Part shown: piece by piece, positions 1-58,514 of the stretch
How the letters are laid out: every line of letters begins with the position of its first letter
Position numbering within the stretch: the stretch's first letter is position 1
Source: a virus
Taxonomy: Duplodnaviria; Caudoviricetes
IMG/VR virus record: IMGVR_UViG_3300002307_000041
Span: 21,096-85,095 of that record
Strand: one strand, 5' to 3'
DNA length: 64,000 nucleotides
The notes under the pieces: model-generated
Told to the model about the DNA's origin: nothing
The model's database searches: none
The model's input: the letters and a program-made list of their open reading frames with translations, nothing else
Made by a program: the position numbers and the translations under genes

Positions 1-972
1 GAAGCACTAGAAAGAGTCATTGGAGATCCTAATCCCAACAGTGTCTTAATTGAAAGTGAAGGAGCAGCCGCAGAAAATCAACGCGGTACTAAAGCAGATT
101 TGTTTATAACTATTGATGGAAAAAGGGAAAGATTATTAAGCCTTAAAGCCGGGGTAGTGCCTCAGGTAGGGCAAATGAGTGGGGCAGCTTTTGAAACTCT
201 CGAAGCATTCTTTAAAAGTGTGTTAGGGTTTGGGTTACCAGCAACTATGAATAATGAAAATGATTTTCCGCGAGATTCTAGACAAGCTGAAGTTAAAAAA
301 TATATTTTACAAAATGGATTTACAAAAGCCTATAAACACATCTATGAATCATTGAGATCTACATTAAGCGGAGATAACAATTATAAAGAATATAATTTTA
401 CTTCACAGGTTTTCAACGGACTGAAGCATCACGCTACTTTAGATGAAGATGTGCTAATCGTATATGTTACTCCGTCGGCTAATAGAGCATATATGGAAAT
501 ATCAATAGGTAAAGAATTACGTGAAGCGTTAGATCATTATGATCTACAGCCTCAATTATCGGGTACTACACTAAAGATAATTGGTGTTCCAAAAGATGAA
601 TTAGGAAAACAAATGAGTGAGGGCAAAACCTTAACTCTATTCCAACTGCGTTCATCAGTACAAGGAAACGCTCTAAGAAATGCAGTTGAGGTTGGAAAAC
701 TAGTTAAAGCGTTAGCCGATTTAGAGAAAATACGAGTACGCCGAGGCGAGAAAAAAGAAGAGCCTAAGTTAAAGGCAAAGCCTGCACCTGCACAACAGCA
801 GCAAGCAGCACAGCAAGCGCCTGTAGCAGCACAGCAGCAAGCACCTGCACAACAGCAGCAAGCAGCACAGCAAGCGCCTGTAGCAGCACAGCAGCAAGCA
901 GCGACCCCTCGTAACAAACAAAACCTAGATTTAAGTAGGTCTCCACTCACTGCTAAATGGATGTCTAGCTGA
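1..972 (+). CDS. 5'-truncated hypothetical protein; possible PD-(D/E)xK nuclease-like N-terminus, Gln/Ala/Pro-rich tail
   Basis: Frame 1 is open from base 1 (EALERVIG...GTKADLFITIDG...LLSLKAG) to TGA at 970-972; KAD...SLK spacing resembles restriction-nuclease-like folds. Confidence 0.6.
   Translation, partial: EALERVIGDPNPNSVLIESEGAAAENQRGTKADLFITIDGKRERLLSLKAGVVPQVGQMSGAAFETLEAFFKSVLGFGLPATMNNENDFPRDSRQAEVKKYILQNGFTKAYKHIYESLRSTLSGDNNYKEYNFTSQVFNGLKHHATLDEDVLIVYVTPSANRAYMEISIGKELREALDHYDLQPQLSGTTLKIIGVPKDELGKQMSEGKTLTLFQLRSSVQGNALRNAVEVGKLVKALADLEKIRVRRGEKKEEPKLKAKPAPAQQQQAAQQAPVAAQQQAPAQQQQAAQQAPVAAQQQAATPRNKQNLDLSRSPLTAKWMSS
784..897 (+). repeat. Perfect 57-bp tandem duplication encoding APAQQQQAAQQAPVAAQQQ x2
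   Basis: 784-840 is identical to 841-897. Confidence 0.95.
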
Positions 973-5905: not shown

Positions 5906-6302
5906 GTGTTTGATCTTAGGCGATAGTATCGCTGTTGGTACTCATCAATATAAGACTGACTGTGTGAAACTTGCTACAAGTGGATTTAGCTCTCTACAAT
6001 GGAATAGACGCTACAATAACACTATCTTATTCTCACAGCAGTTCAATTTTGTTGTAATTAGCTTAGGATCAAACGACTACGCAGCTATCAATACACGCAA
6101 AGAACTAGAAGAACTTAGGATAAAGATTGATAGCAAGCGTGTCTATTGGATATTGCCTGCTATTAAACCTGAGATACAACAAGTGGTTAGAGAGATAGCA
6201 TCTTTCCACGGTGATCGTATTATTAAGATACCTATTCTAGGAAGAGATGGGATACACCCAACTACTACTGGATACAAAAAAATAGCAGAGGAAGTAAAAT
6301 GA
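5898..6302 (+). CDS. SGNH/GDSL hydrolase-like protein
   Basis: [10 protein letters not shown] block I, SLGSND block III, DGIHP block V. Confidence 0.75.
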
Positions 6303-6901
6303 ATTTAGTACCAATGGTAATCGAAAAAGAATCTGGCGGAGAACGTAGCTATGATATCTTTAGTCGCTTGCTTAAAGACAGGATTATAATGTTAGAAGGA
6401 CCCATCGAAGACCATACAAGTGGACTTATTTGTTCACAGCTATTGTTCTTAGAAAGTCAGAATCCGGCAAAGGATATCTATCTCTATATTAATAGTCCAG
6501 GTGGGGTTATTACTGCTGGTATGGCTATCTATGATACTATGCAGTTTATCAAACCAGATGTTTGCACTATCGTAATGGGGCAGGCGTGTAGCATGGGGTC
6601 ATTTTTAGCGCAAGCAGGTGCAACAGGAAAGCGTTGGTTGCTGCCTAACAGCAGACATATGATCCATCAACCTAGCGGTGGAGCTAGAGGTATGGCTAGT
6701 GATATCGAGATTAGCTATAAAGAAATCCAGTTTTGGAAAAATAGGTTGACAGAATTGTATGTTAAGCATAATACTGTAGGTAAGACTTATGATCACTTTG
6801 TAGCAGATATGGATCGAGATAAGTTTATGAGTGCAAACGAAGCAGTTGCTTATGGTCTAGCAGATAAGGTGATCGAGCGTCGAGACGATCTAGGAGAATA
6901 A
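6299..6901 (+). CDS. clpP: ATP-dependent Clp protease proteolytic subunit
   Basis: [41 protein letters not shown] (Ser), MIHQP (His), DRDKFMSA. Confidence 0.97.
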
Positions 6902-8694: not shown

Positions 8695-8769
8695 TGGCCC
8701 ATAGCTCAGGGGTAGAGCACAGTCCTGATAAGACTGGGGTCGGTGGTTCAATCCCACCTGGGCCAACCA
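8695..8769 (+). tRNA. trnI: tRNA-Ile(GAT)
   Basis: CAGTC-CTGATAA-GACTG; CCA. Confidence 0.95.
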
Positions 8770-8774
8770 TATAT

Positions 8775-8856
8775 GGGCAAATGTGAGGGGAATGGCTAAC
8801 AGCTGGGGCCCGCAAGGGGGCTGTTAGAACGGGTTCAAGTCCCGGTTTGTCCACCA
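8775..8856 (+). ncRNA. Anticodon-less tRNA-like RNA resembling a tmRNA tRNA-like domain (alanine identity)
   Basis: Acceptor GGGCAAA/TTTGTCC with G3.U70, A73 and CCA; T arm CGGG-TTCAAGT-CCCG; stemless D region; 8-bp helix CTAACAGC/GCTGTTAG capped by CCC-GCAA-GGG in place of an anticodon arm. Confidence 0.65.
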
Positions 8857-8860
8857 ATAG

Positions 8861-8937
8861 GCCGGTAGGGCGGTTGCGGCAATCGCGCTAGTCTCATACA
8901 CTAGTCTAAGATGTTTCGAGTACATCTACCGGCACCA
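8861..8937 (+). tRNA. tRNA with CAT anticodon (Met elongator or Ile2/lysidine)
   Basis: GCCGGTA/TACCGGC acceptor; CTAGT-CTCATAC-ACTAG; CCA; unusual T stem GATGT/ACATC. Confidence 0.85.
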
Positions 8938-8950: not shown

Positions 8951-10027
8951 ATGATAATAAATTCACATTCAACCTCCGGACTTTGTAGCACTTGTTATCG
9001 AGATTTACCGGCACAGATAGAATATAGAGATGACGGCGCAGCATATATAATAAAAACATGTCCAGATCACGGATATGAAGAAGCAATGATTGAAAGATCT
9101 TGGGAATTTTGGAAAGATATGCCGCAGAATAATCCAAATAATAGAACATATGCTGCATATAATATGACAATGATAGAAGTTACTGATCGTTGTAATGTGA
9201 TGTGTGCTCATTGCTATCATATACCTAATAATAAAATAAAAGATCAACCAGTTGATGTAATAGTAAACAAAGCAATACGCCAACAAGCTGGTGCAATATG
9301 TCTTATTGGTGCAGAACCTACAATGCGAGATGATCTTGACGAAATTATTAAGGGAATTATAGCTAAAAAACCACCAATTATTACAACTGTAGGTACAGTT
9401 TCAAATGGTATTAGAATAGCTGATAAAGATTATCTAAAAAAATTAGAAGATGCAGGTCTTTGGGATATGTCAATAAGCATACATAATCCTAAATATCATA
9501 AAGATATGATATGGGAAAAAGTTAATAAGGGGCTAACTAACTTATTAGAAAGTAATATACATTTAGGACAAGTGGGATTTACTGTAGAAAATTATGAAGA
9601 AATAAAATTTGCAGTTGACAAGATATTATGGTTTAAAAATAACGGTTATAATGCAGGGGATTATTGTATAAGATCTCCAGGAGATATCGGTACAATAGTA
9701 AAACCGGAAGATGAAATATTTGCTAGCGATTTAGTCAGAATGATCAGTCAATATGCAGAAGAAAAGAATATTAGTTTTGAAAAACATCCAAATTATGGAA
9801 GTAATCCATATCATGTAGGATATTTGTTAGATGGTATAAGCATACAAGTAATTCATTGGCCCGGAGCTAGAACTGTTGATACTCGATGGATGAATATTGG
9901 TCCTTGGGCTGAATTTATTCCTAATAGCAGAGGATCTTTTGTATTACAAACAATTCTTAGAGACGGCTGGAAAAAAGGATGGTGGCAAGGGCAACAGTTA
10001 TTATCTATCAATGTCGATAAAAATTAA
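8951..10027 (+). CDS. Radical SAM protein (MoaA/COG1964-like) with N-terminal CxxC...CPxHG zinc domain
   Basis: CSTC...KTCPDHG; EVTDRCNVMCAHC (CxxxCxxC); GAEPT; SNGIRI. Confidence 0.88.
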   Translation: MIINSHSTSGLCSTCYRDLPAQIEYRDDGAAYIIKTCPDHGYEEAMIERSWEFWKDMPQNNPNNRTYAAYNMTMIEVTDRCNVMCAHCYHIPNNKIKDQPVDVIVNKAIRQQAGAICLIGAEPTMRDDLDEIIKGIIAKKPPIITTVGTVSNGIRIADKDYLKKLEDAGLWDMSISIHNPKYHKDMIWEKVNKGLTNLLESNIHLGQVGFTVENYEEIKFAVDKILWFKNNGYNAGDYCIRSPGDIGTIVKPEDEIFASDLVRMISQYAEEKNISFEKHPNYGSNPYHVGYLLDGISIQVIHWPGARTVDTRWMNIGPWAEFIPNSRGSFVLQTILRDGWKKGWWQGQQLLSINVDKN

Positions 10028-10949: not shown

Positions 10950-10954
10950 AATTT

Positions 10955-11026
10955 GCTCGCATGAACTAAGCGTAAGTTCTCCTGCTCGACGGGAGTATGT
11001 AGGTGCAAGCCCTACTGCGAGCTACA
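10955..11026 (+). ncRNA. Non-canonical tRNA-like cloverleaf (nominal TCG loop)
   Basis: All four stems intact (GCTCGCA/TGCGAGC, GAACT/AGTTC, CTCCT/GGGAG, GTAGG/CCTAC), but no D-loop GG, no U33, T-loop TGCAAGC, 3' end TACA. Confidence 0.6.
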
Positions 11027-11031
11027 AATAC

Positions 11032-11108
11032 GGTCGGGTTCCAGAGCGGCTTATGGCGCGGTCTGCAAAACCGTTGATTCGCGGGTTCAAATCCCGCCCC
11101 GACCTCCA
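11032..11108 (+). tRNA. trnC: tRNA-Cys(GCA), copy 1
   Basis: GCGGT-CTGCAAA-ACCGT; U73; CCA. Confidence 0.93.
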
Positions 11109-12062: not shown

Positions 12063-12139
12063 GGTCAGGTTCCAGAGCGGCTTATGGCGCGGTCTGCAAA
12101 ACCGTTGATTCGCGGGTTCGAATCCCGCCCTGACCTCCA
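12063..12139 (+). tRNA. trnC: tRNA-Cys(GCA), copy 2
   Basis: Near-identical to 11032-11108, with a compensated acceptor pair. Confidence 0.93.
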
Positions 12140-12202: not shown

Positions 12203-12646
12203 ATGAATTACAAGGGCACTAAAGATAAAAAGTTTATTTGTAAAAATTGTAATAATGAATTTCCGTTTAAGGGATATAGTTCTAATCACATATATTGTTC
12301 TTTAGAATGTTCAAAAGAATTTGTTAATACAAATAAAAATAGAGTGAATGAACAACGATTTGAAGATTGGTTATCTGGTAAACCATTAGGAGTTAAGAAT
12401 TCAAGACCAATTATAAAAGAATTTGTTATCCGAAGAGATGGTTATAAATGTTCTAGTTGTGGAATAGATAGTTATAATGGAAAAGAAATTACATTATGGC
12501 TCGATCATATTGATGGTAATGCTGCTAATAATAGACCAAATAATTTTAGACTGATTTGCCCAAATTGCGACAGTCAATCGGATACATTTGGTGCTAAGAA
12601 TTATGGTAAAGGAAGAAAATCTAGAGGATTGCCACAATATGGCTAA
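12203..12646 (+). CDS. HNH endonuclease with N-terminal zinc finger
   Basis: CKNC...CSLEC; CSSC...DHIDGNAANNRPNNFRLICPNCDSQ. Confidence 0.88.
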   Translation: MNYKGTKDKKFICKNCNNEFPFKGYSSNHIYCSLECSKEFVNTNKNRVNEQRFEDWLSGKPLGVKNSRPIIKEFVIRRDGYKCSSCGIDSYNGKEITLWLDHIDGNAANNRPNNFRLICPNCDSQSDTFGAKNYGKGRKSRGLPQYG

Positions 12647-13217: not shown

Positions 13218-13622
13218 ATGAAAACGTATATATGTCAACAATGCGGAACAGAACATAAACATAGGGGTATAAACTTCTCTAACAAATATTGTAATAATAA
13301 ATGCCAACAAGAATATCAATATGAGAATCGCATAAAACAATGGTTAGAAGAAGGAAGTGATTGGAAGATTCAAGCTCCAAATTGGGTTAAACGATATCTT
13401 TCTGAACAACGAGGATATCACTGTGAAGTCTGTGAAATTACAGAACATAATGGCAAACCTATAGGATTAGAATGCGATCATATAGATGGTAATCCTAATA
13501 ATAATAAACCAGAGAATTTAAGATTGATTTGTCCAAATTGCCATTCGCAAACTAAATCATTTAAGGGCGCTAATAGAGGTAATGGTAGACAGAAAAGATA
13601 TCATAAAGATTTGATTGATTAA
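13218..13622 (+). CDS. HNH endonuclease with N-terminal zinc finger (paralog of 12203-12646)
   Basis: CQQC...CNNKC; CEVC...DHIDGNPNNNKPENLRLICPNCHSQT; SD AGGAG. Confidence 0.9.
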   Translation: MKTYICQQCGTEHKHRGINFSNKYCNNKCQQEYQYENRIKQWLEEGSDWKIQAPNWVKRYLSEQRGYHCEVCEITEHNGKPIGLECDHIDGNPNNNKPENLRLICPNCHSQTKSFKGANRGNGRQKRYHKDLID

Positions 13623-14625: not shown

Positions 14626-14790
14626 ATGGCTAGAAGTTTCTGGGGGAAAGCAGGTAATATTAACCTGCGTGGGAAAAAGTCTTTGAGATTGCGTTGTCGC
14701 TGTTGTGTCTGTCAAGACCTAAGAGGACGCATTGAAAAGATGCGTATACAGCGTGAAATTAAGGAAATGATAGAAGCTATTGGGGAATAG
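14626..14790 (+). CDS. Small basic Cys-rich protein (CRCCVC); stop codon lies inside tRNA-Gln(CTG)
   Basis: SD GGAG; 54-aa ORF MARSFWGK...IEAIGE*. Confidence 0.55.
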   Translation: MARSFWGKAGNINLRGKKSLRLRCRCCVCQDLRGRIEKMRIQREIKEMIEAIGE

Positions 14791-14856
14791 TTCAGTTGGT
14801 AGAACGCCAGATTCTGATTCTGGATGTCCGTGGTTCGAATCCATGTTCCCCAGCCA
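14781..14856 (+). tRNA. trnQ: tRNA-Gln(CTG)
   Basis: TGGGGAA/TTCCCCA; CCAGA-TTCTGAT-TCTGG; CCA. Confidence 0.94.
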
Positions 14857-14865
14857 ATATTGTAT

Positions 14866-14939
14866 TGGGGTGTCGTCTAATGGTAGGACGCAGGATTTTG
14901 ATTCCTGCTATCGTGGTTCGAGTCCATGCACCCCAGCCA
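14866..14939 (+). tRNA. trnQ: tRNA-Gln(TTG)
   Basis: TGGGGTG/CACCCCA; CAGGA-TTTTGAT-TCCTG; CCA. Confidence 0.94.
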
Positions 14940-14953
14940 ATACTAAATATACG

Positions 14954-15499
14954 ATGAGACAATTTATAGATATATTTGAAACTAAAAGAGAAGATATAAC
15001 GCTAGAGAAACTACCTTACAAAGTAGACGACCTGGCTCCTATTCTCAGCGGCGATAATGTAGACTATCACTATCACGTATTAAGCAAAGGATATGTGGAC
15101 CGCTACAATAACGGCGAAGGCGATCCTGCATTTAACCTCGGAGGGGCTAAACTACATAATATGTGGTGGGCGCAACTGCACCCTAGAGAAGGATTAAACA
15201 ATCCGTCGGGTGCCATAAAAGATTTCATAGAGAAGAACTACGCTAGTATGGGCGGCTTCATAGAAGCTATGACTGAGACTGCTAAAAGCATACAGGGCAG
15301 TGGATGGGTGTACCTAGCAAAAAGCGGCGACATAAAAACAACACCAAATCAAAGTTTTAAAACAGATATCATATTACCTATAGATATGTGGGAGCATAGT
15401 TGGGCAGACTATACTCCGTCTAAGAACGCCAAAAAAGACTATATTAGATCGATAATGAAGATAATTAATTATGATATCATCAACGAGAGGTTGAGATAA
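14954..15499 (+). CDS. sod: Fe/Mn superoxide dismutase family protein
   Basis: LPY..DDLAP, YHY...GYV..YN, LHNMWW, GSGWVYL, IDMWEHSW; the upstream part of the track ORF is tRNA sequence. Confidence 0.9.
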   Translation: MRQFIDIFETKREDITLEKLPYKVDDLAPILSGDNVDYHYHVLSKGYVDRYNNGEGDPAFNLGGAKLHNMWWAQLHPREGLNNPSGAIKDFIEKNYASMGGFIEAMTETAKSIQGSGWVYLAKSGDIKTTPNQSFKTDIILPIDMWEHSWADYTPSKNAKKDYIRSIMKIINYDIINERLR

Positions 15500-15652: not shown

Positions 15653-16831
15653 ATGTTAAGTCTTCAAGTACAAGCACCTAGCTGTTATGCTGATATCGTC
15701 AATAGGCAATTCGATAAGTCTGAAAGTCAGTATATCGACCTACAGGCCAGACTAAATTCTGCTTTGCAGGAACCTTGGAAGAAAACTATCCTAAAAAATT
15801 CTATAAAGAATTTTAGGAATAACAATCCCCATATCAAAAAGTGGAACGATATCACTCTCTGTAAAACACTTACTACTACACTTTCAAAAATTGATATTGA
15901 TATTACCCTACAGAGACTTTTAGATCTAGGACACGCTTGTAATATTTTGTCTAGCTTTAAACAAATCGTAGTTATGCCAATCTGTGTATATGAAGATCCT
16001 GCTAATCCAGGAAAATATATCTGTTGGGATGGTCAACATACAGCTATTGTTTTGACTATTATAGCTTCTATGATTTTGGCTGAAGATTTAGATAAGTGTG
16101 AAGTTCCTATTGTAGTATATTCTAGCAACTTAAAGTCCGATATGCGTCAATGCTTTATCGAACTTAACGGCGAAGGTAAGAAGCCGCTAGATCATATCGA
16201 TCAAGTACATCAAAAACTATTCGGAGTACGTACAGATGGTAGCAAAAACGCCGAATGGCAGCTTATTGATAAGAAATACCGTATGTTAGAAGATTATAAG
16301 ATTTTCTTAACAAATGAGAAATTTGGAGATACCCATTCTCCTGGTGCGCAGGCTAGGTTAGATGAGTTTTTAGATAAAAGCTATCCTCCAGTTATTACTG
16401 AATATTTTGCAAAGTATTTCTTTAATATTTGTCATAGCAGTAGACCAGTTCAACCTAAAGAAAGCTGGATGATGTATGAATTCTTTGATTGGTGTCGTGT
16501 ATCTAAGATCGAAGTTACTGATGATTATATCTACGACATTGCCCAAAGTTTGAAAAAGGCTTTTAATGGTGATTTTGATTCGAGTAAACTTTACACAAAG
16601 GCAAAGTTTAGTTATCAAGAATGGTATCGGGCCAATAAACCTTATCAAGATGGCACACTTTGGGGTATACAATATCCTGAATTTAAAATTGGTCTTACAT
16701 TCTTAATGGCACAAATTGCTAAGAACTTTAAAGGACCGATGCCATCATATAAGCCATTATGGAATGTTCCCGACGAAGATCTATTTTCAAATGATTCAGA
16801 TAGTATCAGTATGAAAAAGGAATATGTTTAA
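15653..16831 (+). CDS. ParB/Srx-like (DGQH motif) domain protein
   Basis: IDITLQR...ICVY...YICWDGQHT...FIELN; SD AGGAGA; upstream TTGACA promoter at 15591. Confidence 0.65.
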   Translation: MLSLQVQAPSCYADIVNRQFDKSESQYIDLQARLNSALQEPWKKTILKNSIKNFRNNNPHIKKWNDITLCKTLTTTLSKIDIDITLQRLLDLGHACNILSSFKQIVVMPICVYEDPANPGKYICWDGQHTAIVLTIIASMILAEDLDKCEVPIVVYSSNLKSDMRQCFIELNGEGKKPLDHIDQVHQKLFGVRTDGSKNAEWQLIDKKYRMLEDYKIFLTNEKFGDTHSPGAQARLDEFLDKSYPPVITEYFAKYFFNICHSSRPVQPKESWMMYEFFDWCRVSKIEVTDDYIYDIAQSLKKAFNGDFDSSKLYTKAKFSYQEWYRANKPYQDGTLWGIQYPEFKIGLTFLMAQIAKNFKGPMPSYKPLWNVPDEDLFSNDSDSISMKKEYV

Positions 16832-17307
16832 TGTTAAATGAGGTACTTTCGAAAAATAATCTTAAACTTAAGAAATTATCTCATTTACGAAAACAAATAG
16901 AAGAAGGACATAAATGTACCTTAAAATTTTGTGACGAGGCGTTATCAGAATATGAAGGTCCTAGATCTAATTATCTCTGTATTGATCACCAATTAATGCA
17001 GAGAGAATATGGTGGATTAGCTCGTTACGATCGCCCATGGACTTTTTCTCGAGAATGGAACTGTGCTTGGTGCGGATATAATCCAAAAGAAGATCCTTGG
17101 TTTAAAAATCCACCAATTCCTTTTGATAACGAAGCACATATGATACGTGCTCAACGCGGAATGCTTGTAGGTGATCATAACAAGCATCGTAGAGTTGATG
17201 GTGGAAGTGATGGTAAAGATAATGTTCAAACTTTATGCCAAAATTGTAATTCTAAAAAAACAATTATGACACACGACTATAGAAGATCAAAAATAGAATG
17301 TGTCTAG
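16831..17307 (+). CDS. HNH endonuclease-like protein, translationally coupled to the DGQH gene
   Basis: CAWC...GDH...GGSDGKDNVQTLCQNCNSKK; TAATG overlap. Confidence 0.8.
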   Translation: MLNEVLSKNNLKLKKLSHLRKQIEEGHKCTLKFCDEALSEYEGPRSNYLCIDHQLMQREYGGLARYDRPWTFSREWNCAWCGYNPKEDPWFKNPPIPFDNEAHMIRAQRGMLVGDHNKHRRVDGGSDGKDNVQTLCQNCNSKKTIMTHDYRRSKIECV

Positions 17308-24111: not shown

Positions 24112-24609
24112 ATGATTCCAGTTACTTACAAATATACTAGCACTAAAGAATATCACGACGCTTTTCCTTGCGCTTACCGCCAATGGAGAGCAGACAGCCA
24201 TTGTAATCTAATACACGGGTATAGTTTCAGTATGAAGTTTTATTTTGGAACTGATAATCTAGATGTACGAAATTGGGCTGCTGATTACGGCGGGTTAAAA
24301 GAACTCAAGAAGAACTTAGAAGACCAATTTGATCATACGTTGCTCGTAGCAGAAGATGACCCCGAACTAGAAACATTTAAGTTGCTGCAAGAAAGACACA
24401 TGGCAAAACTAACTATCCTCCCTAAGCTAGGATGTGAGGGACTTGCAGATGCTCTTTACAAATATGTAAACGGTGTTTATATTCCAGATATGTGGGGTCC
24501 TGGTGAAGCTGATCGCCTCTGGTGTTATAGAATAGAGGTTCGCGAAACACAAGCTAACATGGCATTCCGTGAGGGACATCGTGAATGGAATGAAGACCTT
24601 TTCGAATAA
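24112..24609 (+). CDS. queD: 6-carboxytetrahydropterin synthase / PTPS (QueD-like)
   Basis: HCNLIHGY, DYGGLK, QFDHTLL, EVRET T-fold motifs. Confidence 0.88.
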   Translation: MIPVTYKYTSTKEYHDAFPCAYRQWRADSHCNLIHGYSFSMKFYFGTDNLDVRNWAADYGGLKELKKNLEDQFDHTLLVAEDDPELETFKLLQERHMAKLTILPKLGCEGLADALYKYVNGVYIPDMWGPGEADRLWCYRIEVRETQANMAFREGHREWNEDLFE

Positions 24610-24766
24610 GGCGTGGCGCTTATGGGCAAAGGCTCTAGGCGAAAAAACTGGAAATACGGATGCAGAAGCCGATCTTATAGCTTGCATCCGTACTACAGTT
24701 GTGCTAATATACATAATAACAAACTTCTTTATTATAGCAGGCATCATAAGGCATTGGAATGGTTAA
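24590..24766 (+). CDS. Small conserved T4-like-phage membrane protein
   Basis: WRLWAKALGEK...EAD..A.IRT...TNFFIIAGIIRHW. Confidence 0.75.
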   Translation: MKTFSNKAWRLWAKALGEKTGNTDAEADLIACIRTTVVLIYIITNFFIIAGIIRHWNG

Positions 24767-25769
24767 TCGTATAGGTTTTGCGTGTAAGTGGTCCGAACTA
24801 GGCCCAAAAGGTATAGTTAGTGTACCTGAACTTAACAACAGCACTACGACTGTAGCTTGGCTTAAACGTCAAACTCAGCAAGTAGCTGAACAAAAGTTAT
24901 GGGATCTTATGACCCATAACATCGACGCGGTACATAACCTTGTAAAGAAAGTTGGAGGATTAGATGAACAGTTTAGGATGGTTCGAATTGGGAGCGATGT
25001 GCTTCCTGTATATACAGAGCCAAGTTTTGGTTATTTCTACAATCAACCAGGTGTACGAAACTATGCTGAAAGAAAACTTGCTGAAGTTGGACGAGTGGCT
25101 CGTCTTCTTGATGTGCGTCTCAGTTTTCATCCTGGCCAGTTCACAGTGTTGGCAAGTGATCGCCCAGATGTTGTTGAACGCTCACTAGAAGAGTTTGAAT
25201 ATCACGTAGACATGATCCGTTGGATGGGCTACGGCGTAAAGTTCCAAGATTTTAAATGTAATGTGCATATCGCTGGTAAGCAAGGCCATGAAGGCATACG
25301 AAAGGTATTAGGTCGGCTGAGTCCTGAGGCTCGTAATACCATAACTATCGAAAATGAGGAGAATAAACATGGACTTGATGATTGTCTTGCTATTGCTGAT
25401 TGCGTTCCTATCGTTCTTGATATCCATCATCATTTTATCAAGACAGGGGAATACATTTCACCCGAAGATGACCGCACGAGATTGGTGGTGGACAGCTGGC
25501 GCGGTGTACGGCCTACTTTACATTATTCTGTCAGCCGTGAGGCTGACCTGGTTGGCCATCCACTAGACGTCCTTCCAGATATGGATGTATTGTTAGCGCA
25601 GGGGTACCGTAAACAAAAATTAAGAGCTCACAGCAATTTTATGTGGAATACTGCGGTAAATGAATGGGCATTAGGGTTTTGGGATAATTTTGATATAATG
25701 GTGGAGAGTAAGGCAAAGAACTTATCTAGTTTCGAACTATACAAGTTCTGGAAAGGCCTTGAAAAATAA
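24759..25769 (+). CDS. uvsE: UV-damage endonuclease (UVDE)
   Basis: RIGFACK, RLSFHPGQFTVLAS, NVHIAG, TIENEE, VLDIHHH, HYS, AHS, MVESKAK. Confidence 0.93.
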   Translation: MVNRIGFACKWSELGPKGIVSVPELNNSTTTVAWLKRQTQQVAEQKLWDLMTHNIDAVHNLVKKVGGLDEQFRMVRIGSDVLPVYTEPSFGYFYNQPGVRNYAERKLAEVGRVARLLDVRLSFHPGQFTVLASDRPDVVERSLEEFEYHVDMIRWMGYGVKFQDFKCNVHIAGKQGHEGIRKVLGRLSPEARNTITIENEENKHGLDDCLAIADCVPIVLDIHHHFIKTGEYISPEDDRTRLVVDSWRGVRPTLHYSVSREADLVGHPLDVLPDMDVLLAQGYRKQKLRAHSNFMWNTAVNEWALGFWDNFDIMVESKAKNLSSFELYKFWKGLEK

Positions 25770-26790: not shown

Positions 26791-26879
26791 TTTTATCTTC
26801 TCCTTTTAGGGCATTTTATTTAGTGATAAATATTGTGTGGCAAAAAAAATCTTTCCATGCTCTTAGAATAAATATCATT

Positions 26880-27224
26880 ATGATTATAAATGTTACAGAT
26901 TCAGCTAAAACTCATATCGTAAACGTTCTCAAGAACATGGACAAACCCTATCTAATTTTTGGATTAAAGGGTGGCGGATGTGCTGGTTTCGAATATTTTT
27001 GGGAACCAGCAGATCAGGAATTATACGAAAAAAATGGCACACCCGATAGAGATGAATTTATCGAGCTAAATGATGACAAGAAACTAGTAATAGACTGCAC
27101 TAGTTTAGTCTACTTGTTTGGTAGCACTATTGATTACAAAAGCGATTTTGTTAGTAGTAGTTTAGTTGTAGATAACCCAAATGCCAAATCTAGCTGCGGT
27201 TGCGGCACTAGCATTGCTGTATAA
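26880..27224 (+). CDS. iscA: A-type Fe-S cluster carrier (IscA/ErpA/HesB)
   Basis: INVTDSA, GGGCAGFEY, GSTIDY, NPNAKSSCGCGTS. Confidence 0.93.
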   Translation: MIINVTDSAKTHIVNVLKNMDKPYLIFGLKGGGCAGFEYFWEPADQELYEKNGTPDRDEFIELNDDKKLVIDCTSLVYLFGSTIDYKSDFVSSSLVVDNPNAKSSCGCGTSIAV

Positions 27225-46407: not shown

Positions 46408-47544
46408 ATGTCCTATAGTGCTGTCGAACCTGCTAGATCATATGTACCTACATTTCAAATTACTTGGGAAAGCACATTAAAATGCAATTTAGATTGTACA
46501 TATTGTGGAAAGGGTATAAATGGCGGGCACGATAACAGTATACCTCACCCGTCGTTAGAAGATTGTTTAAAAACCGTTGATTTTCTTTTAGAATATGTTG
46601 ATGCATATATGAAATATAAGATTCCGGCTCATCGGTTAGTTGGGCTTAATGTATTTGGCGGAGAAAGCTTATTCCATCCTAACATTGTAGAAATTTTAGA
46701 TTATATTAAATTACAACATAAAAAATACAAAGACAACTGGCAATTAAGTATACAAACTGTTACAAATGCTGTTGTAAAAGAAAAAATATGGAATCGAATA
46801 TTAGATAAGATAGATTATTGGACTATAAGTTATCATTCAGAAAGTACAGAAGAGCAACAAGATTTAGTTAGAAAAAATCTATTAGATTTAAAAGAAAAAA
46901 ATAAACATTATAACTGTTCTATCTTGATGCATCCTAAGAAATGGGAAAATTGTATTAATATGATAGAATGGTGTAAAAAAAATAATATACCGTATCTACC
47001 GAGACAGTTAGACCATGGTCCATTAGCTTCTGAATTTTTTTATAAAGAAGAACAAGTAAAATGGTTTGACAACTTGCGTGGAGTTAAAACAGATCTATCA
47101 TTTGATAAGAAACTTACTTCAAATGTAAACATGGAAAGTAAGGGACGTAGTTGCTGCGGCGGAAACCCAATGCACATTAATGGTGATCAAAGCTGTAGCC
47201 AATCATATATTCCAAATAATAGATTTGAAGGCTGGCATTGCAGTGTTCATTATTTTTTTATGTTTGTTAAGCAGGTTACAAAAGAAGTATTTGTTAATAA
47301 AGATTGTAAAATGAACTTTGACGGAAATGTAGGGCCAATTGGGTATCTAACGGATACAAAAAAGATCATTGATCGTATTAACAACAATGTACCAAACGCA
47401 ATCATATGTAAAAAAAGCAAATGTTGGTGTGGGTTATGTGCTCCAAAAGCTGAATCTGAAGAAAAATATAATAGCATAATGGATTATTATTTAATTCCAA
47501 CTATAGACCAGCATACTGCTCAAACGATAAATACTTCAGAATAA
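46408..47544 (+). CDS. Radical SAM protein with Cys-rich C-terminal (SPASM/twitch-like) extension
   Basis: CNLDCTYC; FGGESLFHP; TNA; SYH; CCGG...WHC...CKM...CKKSKCWCGLCAPK. Confidence 0.88.
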   Translation: MSYSAVEPARSYVPTFQITWESTLKCNLDCTYCGKGINGGHDNSIPHPSLEDCLKTVDFLLEYVDAYMKYKIPAHRLVGLNVFGGESLFHPNIVEILDYIKLQHKKYKDNWQLSIQTVTNAVVKEKIWNRILDKIDYWTISYHSESTEEQQDLVRKNLLDLKEKNKHYNCSILMHPKKWENCINMIEWCKKNNIPYLPRQLDHGPLASEFFYKEEQVKWFDNLRGVKTDLSFDKKLTSNVNMESKGRSCCGGNPMHINGDQSCSQSYIPNNRFEGWHCSVHYFFMFVKQVTKEVFVNKDCKMNFDGNVGPIGYLTDTKKIIDRINNNVPNAIICKKSKCWCGLCAPKAESEEKYNSIMDYYLIPTIDQHTAQTINTSE

Positions 47545-48882: not shown

Positions 48883-49758
48883 ATGGATCACTATTCAACA
48901 CTCGGCGTAGATAAAACCGCATCAGCAGACGATATACAGAAAGCCTTCCGCAAGGCTGCAATGAAGCACCATCCCGATCGAGGAGGTGACGCAGGAAAGT
49001 TCCAAGAGCTCAATGAAGCATACAGCACACTTAGCGATCCGCAAAAGCGTGCTGAATATGATATGATGGGACAAAATCCGTTTGGACAACAAGGACATCC
49101 TTTTGCTAATGGTTTCCATTTTACTACTGGAAATCCATTCCAGGGTGGGCACCCGGGGCAGAACCCTTTCCAGGATATATTCAATCAATTTGGTTTCCAA
49201 TTCCACACAGGACAACAGCAGGTTCGAAACAGAGATCTCAACATACGTTGCAAGATTAGTCTAAAAGACAGCTACCTAGGTAAACAATTAAACGTCACTT
49301 ATAGGATGCCAAATGGACAGGACGAATCAATCACCGTAGATATTCCTCCAGGTATTGAAAACGGACAAGTTATTAAACTGTCGGGATACGGAGACAATTC
49401 TCTAAAGCATATGCCTAGAGGAGATCTCACTATCCAAATGGAAGTAGAGGCTATGCCGAAGTTCCGTAGAGAAGATTTAAATCTAGTGACAGAAATAGAA
49501 GTAGATGTGTTTGCTGCTATACTTGGTACTAGTATAACGATAGATCATATAGACGGATCAAAAGTAGATTTGACAGTTCCTCCTGGAAGCTTGCACGGAC
49601 AGAGATTAAGTTGCAAAGGTATGGGATTTAAGCATATGAGGTTTGCTGAGACGAGAGGCGATCTACACGTAATAGTGAATATTAAGATGCCTCGTTTGAA
49701 TAATCCAAAACTCAAAGAAGAACTCAAAATACTTGCTGATAAAATTAGGAAAAGTTAA
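48883..49758 (+). CDS. dnaJ: DnaJ-family chaperone (class II/CbpA-like, no zinc finger)
   Basis: J-domain with HPD (KHHPDRGG), G/F-rich linker, two C-terminal substrate domains (RGDL). Confidence 0.92.
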   Translation: MDHYSTLGVDKTASADDIQKAFRKAAMKHHPDRGGDAGKFQELNEAYSTLSDPQKRAEYDMMGQNPFGQQGHPFANGFHFTTGNPFQGGHPGQNPFQDIFNQFGFQFHTGQQQVRNRDLNIRCKISLKDSYLGKQLNVTYRMPNGQDESITVDIPPGIENGQVIKLSGYGDNSLKHMPRGDLTIQMEVEAMPKFRREDLNLVTEIEVDVFAAILGTSITIDHIDGSKVDLTVPPGSLHGQRLSCKGMGFKHMRFAETRGDLHVIVNIKMPRLNNPKLKEELKILADKIRKS

Positions 49759-53682: not shown

Positions 53683-54357
53683 ATGGCCGAAATGCGAGAC
53701 CTATTATCTAAGATAGACGGAATTAGTAACGAAGGAGTTATGTCTGCTGCTAGTAGGCTTATGCCCGGCCTTGGTTTTGCATCTAATGCATACGATCTAT
53801 ATAATGGCGAATATTTAAAAGCAGGTCTTGGATTAATAGCAAATACACTAGAACTATTCCCACCCACTTATCCACTAGGGGCAGGAATAAATGTGGGAAT
53901 GGCAGCACACGACATAAGTCAGGCTGTATCTGAACCAACTCCTAACACTCAAATTCCAACAGTAGACGGCGATGCTACTGATCGCGCAAATGCAGCAAGA
54001 GAAGTCGGTCAAAGATTAAGTGGTAGAAAGGTAGAGCAGGTTGCTTCACAAACACCTAATGTTGTTGCCAACACAGAAGCAGCAACAGCATTATCACAGC
54101 AAACAGATCCGCTAACTACTGATGACATATCATCAGTAGTTGGAAATAATTTATCACCAGAGGCGATTTCAAAATTAGCAGCCGAGGCAGCAAAATATGC
54201 ATTACCAGCAGTAGCAATAATAGCACTATTATATGGAGGTAAAGTTTTGTACGATTATCTCACATCAGCTGCTAAAGAAAACCCCTCTGCAAAACATTCT
54301 CTTGCAGAAATGATAGAAACTGTCAGAGCAGAACGTATGATAAGAGAGACACGATAA
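53683..54357 (+). CDS. Hypothetical protein with hydrophobic helices (candidate internal or ejected virion protein)
   Basis: Late promoter GATAAATA plus SD GAGGA; Gly/Ala-rich amphipathic segments. Confidence 0.65.
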   Translation: MAEMRDLLSKIDGISNEGVMSAASRLMPGLGFASNAYDLYNGEYLKAGLGLIANTLELFPPTYPLGAGINVGMAAHDISQAVSEPTPNTQIPTVDGDATDRANAAREVGQRLSGRKVEQVASQTPNVVANTEAATALSQQTDPLTTDDISSVVGNNLSPEAISKLAAEAAKYALPAVAIIALLYGGKVLYDYLTSAAKENPSAKHSLAEMIETVRAERMIRETR

Positions 54358-55505
54358 TGTTATTAAATGAATTGTTTCGTCATCTCAAAGAAGCTGCTCC
54401 CACGATAGGTAGGAAATATCAACATATCGAAGATTTAGTTTTCACTAATGGAGCCAACGGCGGATTGCATGCTGTCGAACGCCTTAAGCATATGGGCAGT
54501 ACACAGGGCGGAAACATAGAACTTAAATGGGACGGAAGCCCGGTCGTGTATTGGGGCAGGGACGATCAAGGAAGATTTAGTCTAATTCCTAAAAATGCTT
54601 GGGAATATCTAAAGCGTGGAAAGACACAGCTCGACAACGGTGTTCCTACTGTTATGTATAATCCTAAAGACATTAGTGCATTTATTTTAGGTACCGGAAA
54701 ACCAGATCCCGAAAAAGAAAAAGCTAGACAGGCATATGCTAATCAGATAGCAGGCCTTTGGAAATATTTTGAATCAGTTAGTCCAGATAGGGGATATCTC
54801 GAAGGCGGGTTGCTTTTCTATCCAGGTGCTGAACCACAATACAATACAAACACAGGCGAATATGATTTCCAACCAAATCTAACACAATTCCATATACCAG
54901 GAAACAGTGTACTTGGACAACGCATTAAAAATGCAAAAGTAATGGTAGCAGCTACTGGATACTATCCTGCACTAGGCAGCAGTGAAGAGAGCCGCTATCC
55001 AGATGCAGAAAAACTATCTACACAGGATGTAATAGTACAGGGTACAACATATGTAGAACACGCACCAGGCGCAGACGAAGCAGAACTAGCTGCTGCTTCT
55101 AAATTTATATCCAGTAATGCCCAAGCTATTGATGCGTTCTTAAGTCCAAAACCTGGATTAAGCAAACCAGGAGATGTTCTTTATAAATTCTTCAATCAAA
55201 ATCTACGTGTAGAAGGTGTAAAGAAAAAGTTCCAAGATTGGGCTATGCAGAATCTCTCACAGAAGCAAGCTGCTACTATAATCAATGATCCGGGACTAGA
55301 TACTGTTCTATCTGCTGTAGAGCTGCTCACAAAAGAAAAAATGAAAATCATAGATTCGTTAAGTAAAGGTAGACACGGAGACATACGCCAAACAAGGCCC
55401 GAAGGATATGTACAAGCACACCCAGGAGGAGAGTTTGCAAACGATCTCCCAGGGCAGTTTGTAAAAACTATAGATCAAGCCAATTGGTCTCCGAGGAAAG
55501 ATTAA
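54357..55505 (+). CDS. Conserved T4-like-phage protein with KxDG motif (ligase/nucleotidyltransferase-like fold suspected)
   Basis: QHIEDL...IELKWDGSPVVYWG...EGGLLF...PEGYV...KTIDQANWS. Confidence 0.6.
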   Translation: MLLNELFRHLKEAAPTIGRKYQHIEDLVFTNGANGGLHAVERLKHMGSTQGGNIELKWDGSPVVYWGRDDQGRFSLIPKNAWEYLKRGKTQLDNGVPTVMYNPKDISAFILGTGKPDPEKEKARQAYANQIAGLWKYFESVSPDRGYLEGGLLFYPGAEPQYNTNTGEYDFQPNLTQFHIPGNSVLGQRIKNAKVMVAATGYYPALGSSEESRYPDAEKLSTQDVIVQGTTYVEHAPGADEAELAAASKFISSNAQAIDAFLSPKPGLSKPGDVLYKFFNQNLRVEGVKKKFQDWAMQNLSQKQAATIINDPGLDTVLSAVELLTKEKMKIIDSLSKGRHGDIRQTRPEGYVQAHPGGEFANDLPGQFVKTIDQANWSPRKD

Positions 55506-57757
55506 TGTTTTTAAGAGAGTTATTAAAAGAAACCCTAACTAGGACAGGACACGGAAGCACTGCTGTCGTTGGATGGGGGCGCGGTATGGGACATAAAGGC
55601 CATATGTATCTAGCCAGCGCAGTTATACACAAAGCACAAGAAGTAAATGGAGATCCTTATTTTGTAGTGAGCAGGACTGTAGGAAAAGATGATCCTATTA
55701 ATCCAGAAGAGAAGATGGCTATCTATAAGAAAGTGTTTCCAGATAGCAGTCATATCTTCCAAACTGCTACAGATGAGATGCCTGATTTGACTCGTGTGCT
55801 GTCAAACCTGAATCAGCAGGGCTATACTAACGCTATCGTAGTAGTCGGTGCTGATCAAGTTAAGGCCCTTGCATATGTTAAGAATTATAACAATACCCCA
55901 GACAAAACTGGAAAGGTACATTATAAATTCGATAATCTAGAAGTTATTAGCAGACAAGAAACAGCTGCACCCGATGCACAAGAAGAGGGCCCACGTGCCA
56001 CACCTATGCGACAGGTATTACTAGATCCTACAAAGAGTGAAGAAGAAAAGTTTGCAGTATGGCGCGATGCGATGAATCCTGAGATAGACGATGCTCAGGT
56101 TATGGATCTAATGCGTAAGGCAGAACAGCGCATGAAAGCTATGCCTTCTAAAAAAAAAGTTAGCGAAGCAAACGACATAGGAAGTCCAGTTGGTGGTAAG
56201 CGCGGTAGTGGAGAACCCGCAGCGGGGTATGACACAGATGTTATGCGCCAAGCAACAGGAACTATGGAAGATGATTCTGAGGTACACGGATATCATCATC
56301 TGGACGAATTGCTAGCAGGACTGTGTAAAATGGTAGTAGAAGGACATAAGCAGGATCCTCAACGCAATGGGTTAGTAGCAGCAGGAATCAAGACCAAACT
56401 TTATCCATTCATGGCCAGGGTAGGTTATATGGGCAAACATGGACACGTACACGCAGAACGTGCTGTACTAGAAGCATTTACTAGCAAACACGGAGAAGTG
56501 CCTGAAGGCAGCATAATGCTAGTTACTCTAAGTCCTTGCAACAGGCACGATGATAAAACTGCTAGTGAGAGAGTTGGAGAACCTTGTAGCGAATTAGTAG
56601 CAGCACACGGTATTGAAAAAGTTTACTGTGGATTAATAGATCCTAGCCAAGCACACGGCGGACACGATCACAGGCATTACAATCTGATAGAAACAGAAAA
56701 TGAAAGCATACGAGAACTTTGCGAAGAGTTTGCAAATACTTTTTTGCACGGAAGAGAACGCATCTATGAATCTACAAATTTTAAGAAATCATTGCGCGAC
56801 CAACTAAACAGGTGGATGGAACGTGATCAAGAGTTCAAAGACCCCACACAGCGCATACAGTTCCAGGAAGAGATTTGGCCGCGCATAGAAAAATACATGG
56901 TAGAAATACTAGAGGATGTAGGAGAAAAAGGCAATGGAGACTATCCTAGTTCCCCGTATTCTACTTGGCTGCTTGTGCAGCATATGGACGCCTTCCCAAA
57001 CAGGCAGCGTGAATTCTTAAATGCCTTAGAACAGTACATACCTAATCATCCCAAGATACAGTTCTTAAGAGATAGAGTAGCTGTTAACGAATGGGTCCAG
57101 GAACACTACACAGAAAAGAAATTCTATCATAACGGAAAACCTCTATCTAAACCTACAGTAAACATACGTAATCCTGCCATGTTTAAAGATGCAGGAATAA
57201 AGGCTGAAACAAGATCCGAAGCACTAGCTAATGCTAAGAAAGCAGGCAATGTGCTGTTGGTCGCTGCTGTTAATGCTACAGGTGCAGAGACACAGCCGAG
57301 CTACACACAGACTAGTGAAAGTATAGACGAGTCCCTTGATGCTTCATATAAGTTTAAGTATATCGGACAAACAGAAGATAATATGTATACCTATACATTT
57401 ACACCAAAGGGCGTATCTAAAATCAGTGTTAGTATATTCCACGATCCTACCGATAAAAGGGTAGGTCATGTTACTTTCCAACGAGACGAAGACGAAACTG
57501 AAAAGCTAACTGGTGAGCATCCAACTACTGCTGCTAGGGTCTTAGGTACTGTAAAACATATCATCGCTTACCATATGAAAAAATTCCCACAGATTAAAAC
57601 GATTAAGTTTGAAGCGGATCAAAAAGAACCTAGCCGGGTGCGGGCATACGGTGCATTAGCAAAAAGATTTGGTGGGAAGTCAGATACAACCAATAAAAGA
57701 TATGCTTCGTATGAATTTCCAAACGCTGCTGCTATTGCTAGAGGAAAAATCAAATGA
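55505..57757 (+). CDS. Multi-domain protein: HxGH cytidylyltransferase-like domain, cytidine/dCMP-deaminase-like domain, and unknown domains
   Basis: GRGMGHKGH, VVGADQ, SRQE; HAERAV...TLSPC...PC...VYCG; acidic xxE linkers. Confidence 0.75.
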   Translation: MFLRELLKETLTRTGHGSTAVVGWGRGMGHKGHMYLASAVIHKAQEVNGDPYFVVSRTVGKDDPINPEEKMAIYKKVFPDSSHIFQTATDEMPDLTRVLSNLNQQGYTNAIVVVGADQVKALAYVKNYNNTPDKTGKVHYKFDNLEVISRQETAAPDAQEEGPRATPMRQVLLDPTKSEEEKFAVWRDAMNPEIDDAQVMDLMRKAEQRMKAMPSKKKVSEANDIGSPVGGKRGSGEPAAGYDTDVMRQATGTMEDDSEVHGYHHLDELLAGLCKMVVEGHKQDPQRNGLVAAGIKTKLYPFMARVGYMGKHGHVHAERAVLEAFTSKHGEVPEGSIMLVTLSPCNRHDDKTASERVGEPCSELVAAHGIEKVYCGLIDPSQAHGGHDHRHYNLIETENESIRELCEEFANTFLHGRERIYESTNFKKSLRDQLNRWMERDQEFKDPTQRIQFQEEIWPRIEKYMVEILEDVGEKGNGDYPSSPYSTWLLVQHMDAFPNRQREFLNALEQYIPNHPKIQFLRDRVAVNEWVQEHYTEKKFYHNGKPLSKPTVNIRNPAMFKDAGIKAETRSEALANAKKAGNVLLVAAVNATGAETQPSYTQTSESIDESLDASYKFKYIGQTEDNMYTYTFTPKGVSKISVSIFHDPTDKRVGHVTFQRDEDETEKLTGEHPTTAARVLGTVKHIIAYHMKKFPQIKTIKFEADQKEPSRVRAYGALAKRFGGKSDTTNKRYASYEFPNAAAIARGKIK

Positions 57758-58065
57758 AACAATATAAAATAACTTCAGCGGATCTAAATCAAACCAGTGA
57801 GGATGATTGTTATCTAGCTCCGGATGATCCTATACACGAGCTCAAAACATTAGCTGGACTCGGCGGGTTAGGCGGGCAAGCTAGATTAGCGGAATATCGC
57901 GCATCTAAGATGCAGGAAAATATTAGCGACACTGGTATGGAAAAAGTTAACCTAATGAAAGCTAACAACATACAACCAGGCACTCCAGAGTGGTTCCAGT
58001 TATGGTTTAGTAGACCATATCTAACTGGAGAACCACCTGTAGGTGTACGAGGACGCAAAAAGTAA
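57754..58065 (+). CDS. Conserved phage hypothetical protein
   Basis: MKQYKIT...NIQPGTPEWFQLWFSRPYLTGE. Confidence 0.72.
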   Translation: MKQYKITSADLNQTSEDDCYLAPDDPIHELKTLAGLGGLGGQARLAEYRASKMQENISDTGMEKVNLMKANNIQPGTPEWFQLWFSRPYLTGEPPVGVRGRKK

Positions 58066-58422
58066 TCAGCAGGATGCTAACATACTCATACGCAACGCAC
58101 ATACTTTTTCAACTGTATTATCTTTTATTTCATATACAACAACCTGAGGACGATTAGTACCACGATGCAGTTCAATTTGTATATCCAAACTTTTAGGAAG
58201 GATCATTCCCTGCTGTAGTAGGCAATAATGAGGGTCGCTGCGTAGCTCTGCCATTAGTGTTTTATCTAACCAGCAGCGGGCAAGTATAGCACCGAGACAA
58301 TCAACTATATCTGCTTTGATTGTTTCAACGTCCAATATTTTAAACTCAGCATACTCATAGTTGTTATTTTGTTTGCTACGGAAATAGGTTATACGCGGAT
58401 CACTGTACACTGTAGGCAACAT
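58066..58422 (-). CDS. Hypothetical protein with NHLP-leader / nitrile-hydratase-alpha-like segment
   Basis: LGAILARCWLDKTLMAELRSDPHYCLLQQGMILPKSLDIQI. Confidence 0.5.
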   Translation of the reverse strand: MLPTVYSDPRITYFRSKQNNNYEYAEFKILDVETIKADIVDCLGAILARCWLDKTLMAELRSDPHYCLLQQGMILPKSLDIQIELHRGTNRPQVVVYEIKDNTVEKVCALRMSMLASC

Positions 58423-58514
58423 GATACTCTCCGTGCTTGTTAGCTTAAACAGTATACTATCTAGATGCTAATAAAAAGTTAATAGACATAATTTAAAATG
58501 GAAATAAATAGAGT

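Follow-up and report, generated by a model that had tools for sequence, protein, structure and literature searches.

An 82-nt tRNA-like element lies within the tRNA array of a virus known from the 85-kb IMG/VR record IMGVR_UViG_3300002307_000041 (G000, estimated to be 23% complete). The stretch analyzed here, referred to as the window, consists of 64,000 nucleotides and corresponds to bases 21096-85095 of that record. Sequence comparison shows the element to be a functional, structured, non-decoding tRNA-like RNA gene and not a decaying pseudogene, because it is conserved among phages whose neighboring proteins are only 64-73% identical and because its substitutions preserve base pairing. With moderate confidence, it can be regarded as a tRNA-Ala-derived RNA, probably an alanine-accepting carrier or mimic, that is kept out of decoding. 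The source is a jumbo phage from freshwater and lake metagenomes, and a gene identical to a neighbor of the element is found on a 362,748-bp contig.

Phage tRNA arrays are usually seen as collections of decoders, which adjust codon supply or replace tRNAs cut by defense nucleases. The element constitutes a new variant of tRNA-derived mimic: it is under purifying and structural selection and keeps the alanine-charging top half, with no decoding. Should it prove to be charged, the element would represent a stand-alone tRNA mimic of viral origin that accepts alanine, and it could hint at a use of Ala-tRNA away from the ribosome, a new kind of RNA directed at ribosomes, or an anti-defense decoy shaped like a tRNA. 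Conserved tRNA-derived genes of viral arrays are overlooked by tRNA finders.

Structure, covariation and distribution of the element

The acceptor stem of the element, GGGCAAA(U)/(G)UUUGUCC, contains a G3·U70 wobble pair and is followed by the discriminator A73 and an encoded CCA. The T arm (CGGG-UUCAAGU-CCCG) is preceded by TTAGAA (in DNA letters), and the variable region consists of a 2-nt linker ahead of this arm. The site of the anticodon arm is occupied by a 9-bp helix, a 4-nt GGGG bulge, a 3-bp CCC/GGG helix and a GCAA loop (minimum free energy, MFE, of -30.9 kcal/mol), and the RNAalifold consensus of the variants gives the same structure as the single-sequence MFE fold. Two candidate folds exist for the D region of 13-14 nt: single-stranded next to the 9-bp helix, or a weak D stem with three of four base pairs next to an 8-bp helix. 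The weak stem (G9-C22, U10·G21, and A12-U19) is inferred only from homology to the CUA tRNA of a related phage, described below. The sequence variants imply an 8-bp acceptor and a 4-bp T stem (the 8/4 layout), as U8·G71 of one variant (V1) turns into C8-G71 in two others (V2 and V3), whereas a 7/5 layout would need an A·G pair.

All anatomical features that a preliminary description had assigned to the RNA between tRNA-Ile and the CAT tRNA are present in the sequence, including the alanine identity set (G3·U70, A73, and CCA), which is invariant across all 5 distinct variants. The same description had an 8-bp helix in place of the anticodon arm; the long helix and its CCC-GCAA-GGG cap stand, while its length changes to 9 bp, a bulge and 3 bp in both the MFE and RNAalifold structures. 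The covariation in homologs that it had suggested as a check is found, and no homolog possesses a normal Ala anticodon arm.

Homologs, retrieved as true relatives by means of the 22-25-mer at the 3' end of the element, occur in other uncultured freshwater jumbo phages. The variant from G005 (L019/L020), L022, and L023 has C8 and a 5-G bulge, and that of L024 has C8 and the sequence GGGGGG-CC-GCAA. Three extra variants come from Logan contigs of two lake/freshwater runs: V4 (C29A+G46U, C36U+G43A, bulge GGCGGG), V5 (C29A+G46U, C37U+G42A, bulge GGCGG), and V6 (U8 retained, five Gs in the bulge). The element is identical in over ten assemblies of the same phage; these contigs (L006-L015, L017, and L018) are at least 99.4% identical overall, so the invariance among them is uninformative.

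In the alignment, which comprises five distinct sequences, the proportion of paired cells is 99.2%. Two-sided compensatory changes affect three pairs: 29-46 (C-G to A-U), in two variants, and 36-43 and 37-42 (both C-G to U-A), each in a different variant. As a control, partners were slid by 1-3 columns, which yielded 0 compensatory pairs. Six of the eight substituted sites fall in compensatory pairs, one improves a wobble (U8·G71 to C8-G71 in L020, L022, L023, and L024), and the remaining one accounts for the sole broken pair (35-44 in L024). Unpaired variation is confined to the bulge and concerns its length and one G/C column, which depends on the placement of an inserted C. The acceptor (but for U8/C8), the D region, the linker, the T arm and the GCAA loop do not vary among the variants. 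The evenly spread, helix-breaking substitutions of neutral decay are not observed, and the compensatory G42A and G43A changes indicate that the present target of selection is pairing rather than decoding. A G-quadruplex formed by the G runs of the element was considered and ruled out, as V4 and V5 break the tracts (GGCGGG and GAGG).

The window element is 97.6% identical to that of G005/L022 and 96.4% identical to that of L024, whereas three flanking proteins (ClpP, orf182, and an outer membrane protein) show the above-mentioned 64-73% identity between the window and G005/L022. Same-anticodon tRNAs have a mean identity of 73-79% across relatives (range 51-100%), and the element ranks among the best-conserved members of the array. 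It is placed at tRNA spacing, and the conserved unit extends exactly from G1 to the encoded CCA: in foreign contigs, homology starts at 8773/8774 and stops at 8856/8857, with different tRNAs on both flanks. At least four array contexts are represented (EL being the element): Ile-EL-Met(cat) in the window, Ile-Cys-EL-Gln-Met(cat) in L020, L022, and L023, Ile-Cys-EL-Met(cat) in L024, and another tRNA-EL-Lys-like in run X8.

Judging from the sequence collections searched, the element is an accessory member of the array in a narrow clade, because it is absent from other relatives, GenBank phages and prokaryote genomes alike. In L016, where the neighboring radical SAM protein is 77% identical, 4 nt separate tRNA-Ile from tRNA-Met(cat), and the element is missing. 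No match to model R1 was found in 80 loci of related phages (reached via the orf182 homolog; 1.17 Mb, including the L147 and L148 arrays), and blastn gave no match to the element in 50,697 GenBank phage records (INPHARED), nor did an exact 22-mer search of 185,579 prokaryote species, each represented by one genome. L019 was the sole match in exact or gapped pattern searches of viral contigs. Rfam 15 and a limited literature search contained no counterpart of the element. A loose acceptor pattern hit at least 120 stretches in cellular genomes; none of the 80 checked fits model R1, and they were rejected as chance matches. A crude screen of 107 loci for tRNA-like genes missed by ARAGORN returned only the element family, the CUA tRNA of G005, and one Asn-like gene. 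The latter (L161:2385-2459, on a distant related phage contig) is a 75-nt gene whose anticodon loop carries GUU (Asn-type) and whose D arm is aberrant.

Relation to tRNA-Ala, tmRNA and other tRNA-like RNAs

The element is not called as a tRNA by default ARAGORN. The Rfam tRNA model (RF00005) assigns it 19.2 bits, below the gathering score of 29, and no full cloverleaf is formed: the alignment covers the acceptor, the T arm and a 5-bp stem only, a 16-nt insert replacing the 7-nt loop. A free 7-nt anticodon loop with U33 is lacking, as the positions equivalent to 32-34 are paired. Canonical tRNA-Ala is similar in its acceptor identity, T loop, encoded CCA, array position and the NGC-AA sequence that survives as a relic in the loop; the element differs in its low score, in the pairing of the anticodon loop into a 3-bp helix, and in its degenerate D arm.

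This relic suggests the origin of the element. Its loop 7-mer reads CCCGCAA, CUCGCAA in V4 and CCUGCAA in V5, i.e., N32-N33-(C/U)GC-A-A, with G-rich insertions on either side. Since the 7-mer reads as an Ala anticodon loop and the adjoining stem is shared with a paralogous CUA tRNA, the element is inferred to descend from a tRNA-Ala-type arm or gene. The CGC in the loop had been pointed out in the preliminary description as a trace of tRNA-Ala; it does indicate such an origin, but not the decay that was proposed along with it. The CUA tRNA, a 72-nt amber-suppressor-like gene with an atypical D arm (L021:3312-3383 = G005:5311-5382), is missed by ARAGORN and scores 38.6 bits with the Rfam tRNA model. 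It shares GCUAACAGCU...CUGU(A/U)AGA with the element, including the stem ACAGC/GCUGU (the anticodon stem and its flanks), and reaches 32 bits with the model of the element, against about 20 bits for ordinary tRNAs. On these grounds it is a probable paralog; MAFFT alignments of the element with tRNA-Ala or the CUA tRNA are unreliable.

The CUA tRNA lies beside a canonical tRNA-Ala(UGC), which together with a tRNA-Pro is located about 40 kb upstream of the array in G005, a phage that also carries the element. The element is therefore not the decoding tRNA-Ala of that phage. This also reduces the value of an earlier argument: the window, as had been stated, contains no tRNA-Ala detectable by ARAGORN or Rfam, and the same is true of the 85-kb record, about 23% of the genome, but this is hardly informative, since the corresponding region is not part of the record. 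A search for the tRNA-Ala of the window phage through the Bax1-I gene neighboring the G005 tRNA-Ala led to L025/L026, which carry no tRNA-Ala and are not linkable to the phage.

Assignment of the element to the transfer-messenger RNAs (tmRNAs), also put forward earlier, is not supported. ARAGORN in its tmRNA modes (-m, -mt, and -mtx) gives no match, and Rfam at E<=10 lists tRNA alone. The similarity to the tRNA-like domain of tmRNA, including jakobid mitochondrial tmRNAs reduced to this domain, consists in G3·U70, A73, and CCA, a 12-bp acceptor/T branch, the lack of an anticodon, a stemless D region and a helix that exits at the site of the anticodon arm. The element nevertheless has an 8/4 instead of a 7/5 layout, a D region unlike the D-loop of the phage's own tmRNA, and a helix closed by a GNRA tetraloop; it is an 82-nt closed hairpin molecule with no resume codon, tag frame or pseudoknots, and it coexists with a complete phage tmRNA.

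The 8/4 layout is shared by allo-tRNAs and by other tRNAs of bacteria and α-proteobacterial phages. Such 8/4 tRNAs, including G3:U70-containing ones that are charged by AlaRS (alanyl-tRNA synthetase) in vivo, are encoded in tRNA clusters of these phages (Mukai et al., PMC5389517). Like the element, they combine an 8-bp acceptor with a 4-bp T stem, and some are alanine acceptors; unlike the element, with its closed hairpin and 2-nt variable region, allo-tRNAs decode, by means of a functional 7-nt anticodon loop, and possess a long variable arm. In phage T4, the tRNA region yields a pair of small, stable RNAs called RNAC and RNAD, of unknown function (PMC3014915, PMC9697503). They likewise are non-tRNA RNAs within a phage tRNA cluster, but are longer than the element and have not been described as alanine-identity mimics.

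Possible roles of the element

G3·U70 together with A73 is sufficient for alanine acceptance, even in minihelices, and AlaRS reads G3·U70 while ignoring the anticodon. The 12-bp acceptor/T branch is recognized by EF-Tu and by CCA-end enzymes. The element would be co-transcribed with its neighbors, released by RNase P and 3' processing, and charged with alanine by the host AlaRS; alanylation is predicted because the enzyme reads G3·U70 and not the anticodon, which makes alanine the natural identity for an anticodon-less carrier. As the would-be anticodon is base-paired, no codon could be read, and the element would carry alanine, or mimic a tRNA, apart from normal decoding. The bulge and the GCAA hairpin may form a recognition or insulation module, a handle for a partner.

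The tentatively favored role is that of a dedicated non-proteinogenic Ala-tRNA serving an aminoacyl-tRNA-dependent transferase. In staphylococcal cell-wall tRNA-Gly, the Ala-tRNA used by FemX, and the Gly-tRNA that is the donor for Mom of phage Mu (PMC13219725), a charged tRNA is similarly diverted to a transferase, and the last case provides a phage precedent. These tRNAs, however, keep their anticodon loops, and no transferase gene was found in the partial genomes of the phages with the element.

Several observations weigh against the interpretation as a functional alanine carrier. The shuffle z-score for single-sequence folding is only -1.0, a weak value, so folding energy alone proves nothing. 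The high identity could partly reflect a recent exchange of array cassettes, as some true tRNAs are also 97-100% identical. V4 and V5, which supply the compensatory changes, were rebuilt from difference tables of assembled contigs from two runs rather than from loci. With 5-6 variants the family is small, and the relatives without it comprise L016 and all 80 related loci. In two RNA runs (X23 and X24), contigs cover only the neighboring tRNA-like parts, which was counted on this side, yet is evidence neither way. Finally, neither G000 nor G005 encodes SmpB, an NFACT_N domain, an AlaRS core, a Fem-like Acetyltransf_6 domain or an aminoacyl-tRNA transferase in the 18-23% of each phage genome that was searched, a coverage at which missing genes are not evidence of absence.

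Behind the transferase donor come two other roles, in which the element acts as a decoy or at the ribosome. As a decoy or sponge, it would be a pseudo-substrate tying up either a host tRNA-directed defense enzyme, through its acceptor end or elbow, or AlaRS/EF-Tu. The invariance of the whole top half is consistent with this, and the element, which has no anticodon loop and whose closed region is not cleavable like a normal loop, would be immune to anticodon nucleases. Phage tRNA arrays have also been linked with the evasion of tRNA-targeting defenses (PMC10264068, PMC11555353). A stoichiometric decoy would be inefficient against catalytic toxins, though, no target has been identified, and both the alanine identity and the selected module of bulge and GCAA loop would be left unexplained; the role is thus considered unlikely.

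A ribosome-directed alanine donor, the broad form of the mini-tmRNA idea, appears rather improbable. Charged with alanine, the element would be admitted to empty A sites together with SmpB, or without it if the 3-bp mini-helix and GNRA cap took the place of a codon-anticodon duplex; stalled chains would then be rescued or tailed, or tmRNA would face a competitor. The tmRNA-like topology (G3·U70, stemless D region, and a helix for the anticodon arm) fits such a role, as do the exactly three apical pairs upheld by covariation and the presence of the phage's own tmRNA, ClpP, ClpA/B-like AAA+ protein and DnaJ. The differences from tmRNA described above (no model match, D region, and 8/4 layout) speak against it, as does the lack of SmpB in the 85-kb part of the genome; with no resume codon, peptidyl transfer would lead to a dead-end complex, and the function would be redundant with the full phage tmRNA. 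A specific version, an SmpB-independent A-site entry module, must be called distinctly improbable. Here the GCAA-capped 3-bp mini-helix of the Ala-charged, EF-Tu-delivered RNA would mimic a codon-anticodon duplex at the decoding center; by a count of stacked bases, the mini-helix and GCAA would lie roughly at positions 34-37 of a normal tRNA. Such a module would give alanine to stalled or empty-A-site ribosomes independently of the codon and, if real, would be a minimal phage device for rescue or alanine tailing beside the phage tmRNA, ClpP and ClpA-like genes.

Restoration of a decoding tRNA-Ala(CGC/UGC) during maturation, whether by intron removal, by cutting and religation with phage RNA repair enzymes, or by opening of the loop on the ribosome, is very improbable. 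The loop 7-mer equals an Ala anticodon loop in all variants, and a ligase-like cluster is present at 54357-60143. An intron-bearing tRNA is obtained only from forced ARAGORN (-ps80 -i0,40), as 'tRNA-Pro(ggg) + 9-nt intron', and was rejected: this model has G33 and combines a Pro anticodon with Ala identity, and covariation favors the hairpin. In addition, maturation would require two excisions at different places, bacteria are not known to possess a small-intron machinery, and G42A and G43A are sensible only if positions 36 and 37 pair.

A decaying tRNA-Ala pseudogene, the alternative of the preliminary description, or a mere processing spacer has next to no probability and is largely refuted already: the sub-threshold scores in tRNA models, a clearly degenerate tRNA-like sequence in the same array (10954-11024), and the absence of the element from L016, L147, and L148 would agree with it, but the homologs, which share 96-98% identity in phages whose proteins are about 70% identical, retain the abnormal arm with three compensatory pairs that repair it, and have exact unit ends in several contexts.

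The phage, its tRNA array and neighboring genes

The array contains 24 tRNAs according to ARAGORN, with Ala, Phe, and Pro missing. The coding density of the window under table 11 is 92%, so no recoding is evident. The phage tmRNA lies 9.6-10.0 kb upstream of the window start (Table 1).

Table 1. Features of the element, its flanking tRNAs, and genes related to tmRNA and proteostasis (window coordinates unless a record is given; pos, position within the element)
Feature	Location	Strand	Remarks
82-nt tRNA-like element	8775-8856	+	Inside phage tRNA array
Acceptor stem, 5' strand (pos 1-8, GGGCAAAU)	8775..8782	+	G3 in G3·U70-type wobble; pos 8 is U or C, paired to G71
D-like region (pos 9-21, GUGAGGGGAAUGG)	8783..8795	+	G-rich; no convincing stem; same in all variants
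Long helix, 5' strand (pos 22-30, CUAACAGCU)	8796..8804	+	MFE and RNAalifold
Purine-rich bulge (pos 31-34, GGGG)	8805..8808	+	Variants GGGG, GGGGG, GGCGG, GGCGGG
Apical 3-bp CCC/GGG mini-helix and GCAA (GNRA) tetraloop (pos 35-44)	8809..8818	+	Tetraloop invariant
Long helix, 3' strand (pos 45-53, GGCUGUUAG)	8819..8827	+	MFE and RNAalifold
AA linker and T arm: 4-bp CGGG/CCCG, T loop UUCAAGU (pos 54-70)	8828..8844	+	Invariant
Acceptor, 3' strand GUUUGUCC (pos 71-78, carries U of G3·U70), discriminator A, encoded CCA	8845..8856	+	Invariant
tRNA-Ile(GAU)	8695..8769	+	Upstream neighbor, 5 nt from element; ARAGORN
tRNA(CAU)	8861..8937	+	Downstream neighbor, 4 nt from element; ARAGORN; 97-100% identical in relatives
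Permuted two-piece tmRNA, α-proteobacterial type	G000:C1:11102-11490		Complete; tag ANDNVATYEMALAA; acceptor GGGGUCG/CGACUCC with G3·U70
ClpP	6299-6901		Proteostasis set
DnaJ	48883-49758		Proteostasis set
ClpA/ClpB-like double AAA+ protein, 735 aa	49821-52028		Proteostasis set

The CAU tRNA downstream of the element falls under the Rfam tRNA gathering score, yet its high identity extends to L016, L020, L022, and L024; it is possibly a tRNA-Ile2 (lysidine) or an elongator tRNA-Met. The degenerate tRNA-like sequence at 10954-11024 (+), located between tRNA-Glu and tRNA-Cys, is the second one in the window that ARAGORN does not detect. Its acceptor has 7 bp, and a D arm and the T loop UGCAAGC are present, but CCA is missing. 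The T loop is better in the L016 homolog (L016:12329-12402), whose anticodon loop has 8 nt (GUUUCAAU) and which ARAGORN reports as 'tRNA-???'. Two copies of tRNA-Cys(GCA), at 11032-11108 and 12063-12139, are 96% identical and 1 kb apart.

Several protein genes are embedded in the array. A radical SAM gene (8951-10027, +) that encodes an N-terminal zinc ribbon of the HMPTM type is kept in place in relatives at 51-77% identity (L004, L005, L016, and L017); the strain variant L017 carries a second radical SAM gene and a tRNA-Pro at the site of tRNA-Asp in the window. HNH endonuclease genes are scattered through the array (12203-12646, 13218-13622, and 16831-17307). A Fe/Mn superoxide dismutase gene is found at 14780-15499; its listed TTG start overlaps tRNA-Gln genes, and the true start is probably downstream. 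Further auxiliary genes encode a QueD/PTPS-like protein (24112-24609), a UvdE UV endonuclease (24759-25769), an A-type Fe-S carrier (26823-27224), and another radical SAM protein (46408-47544).
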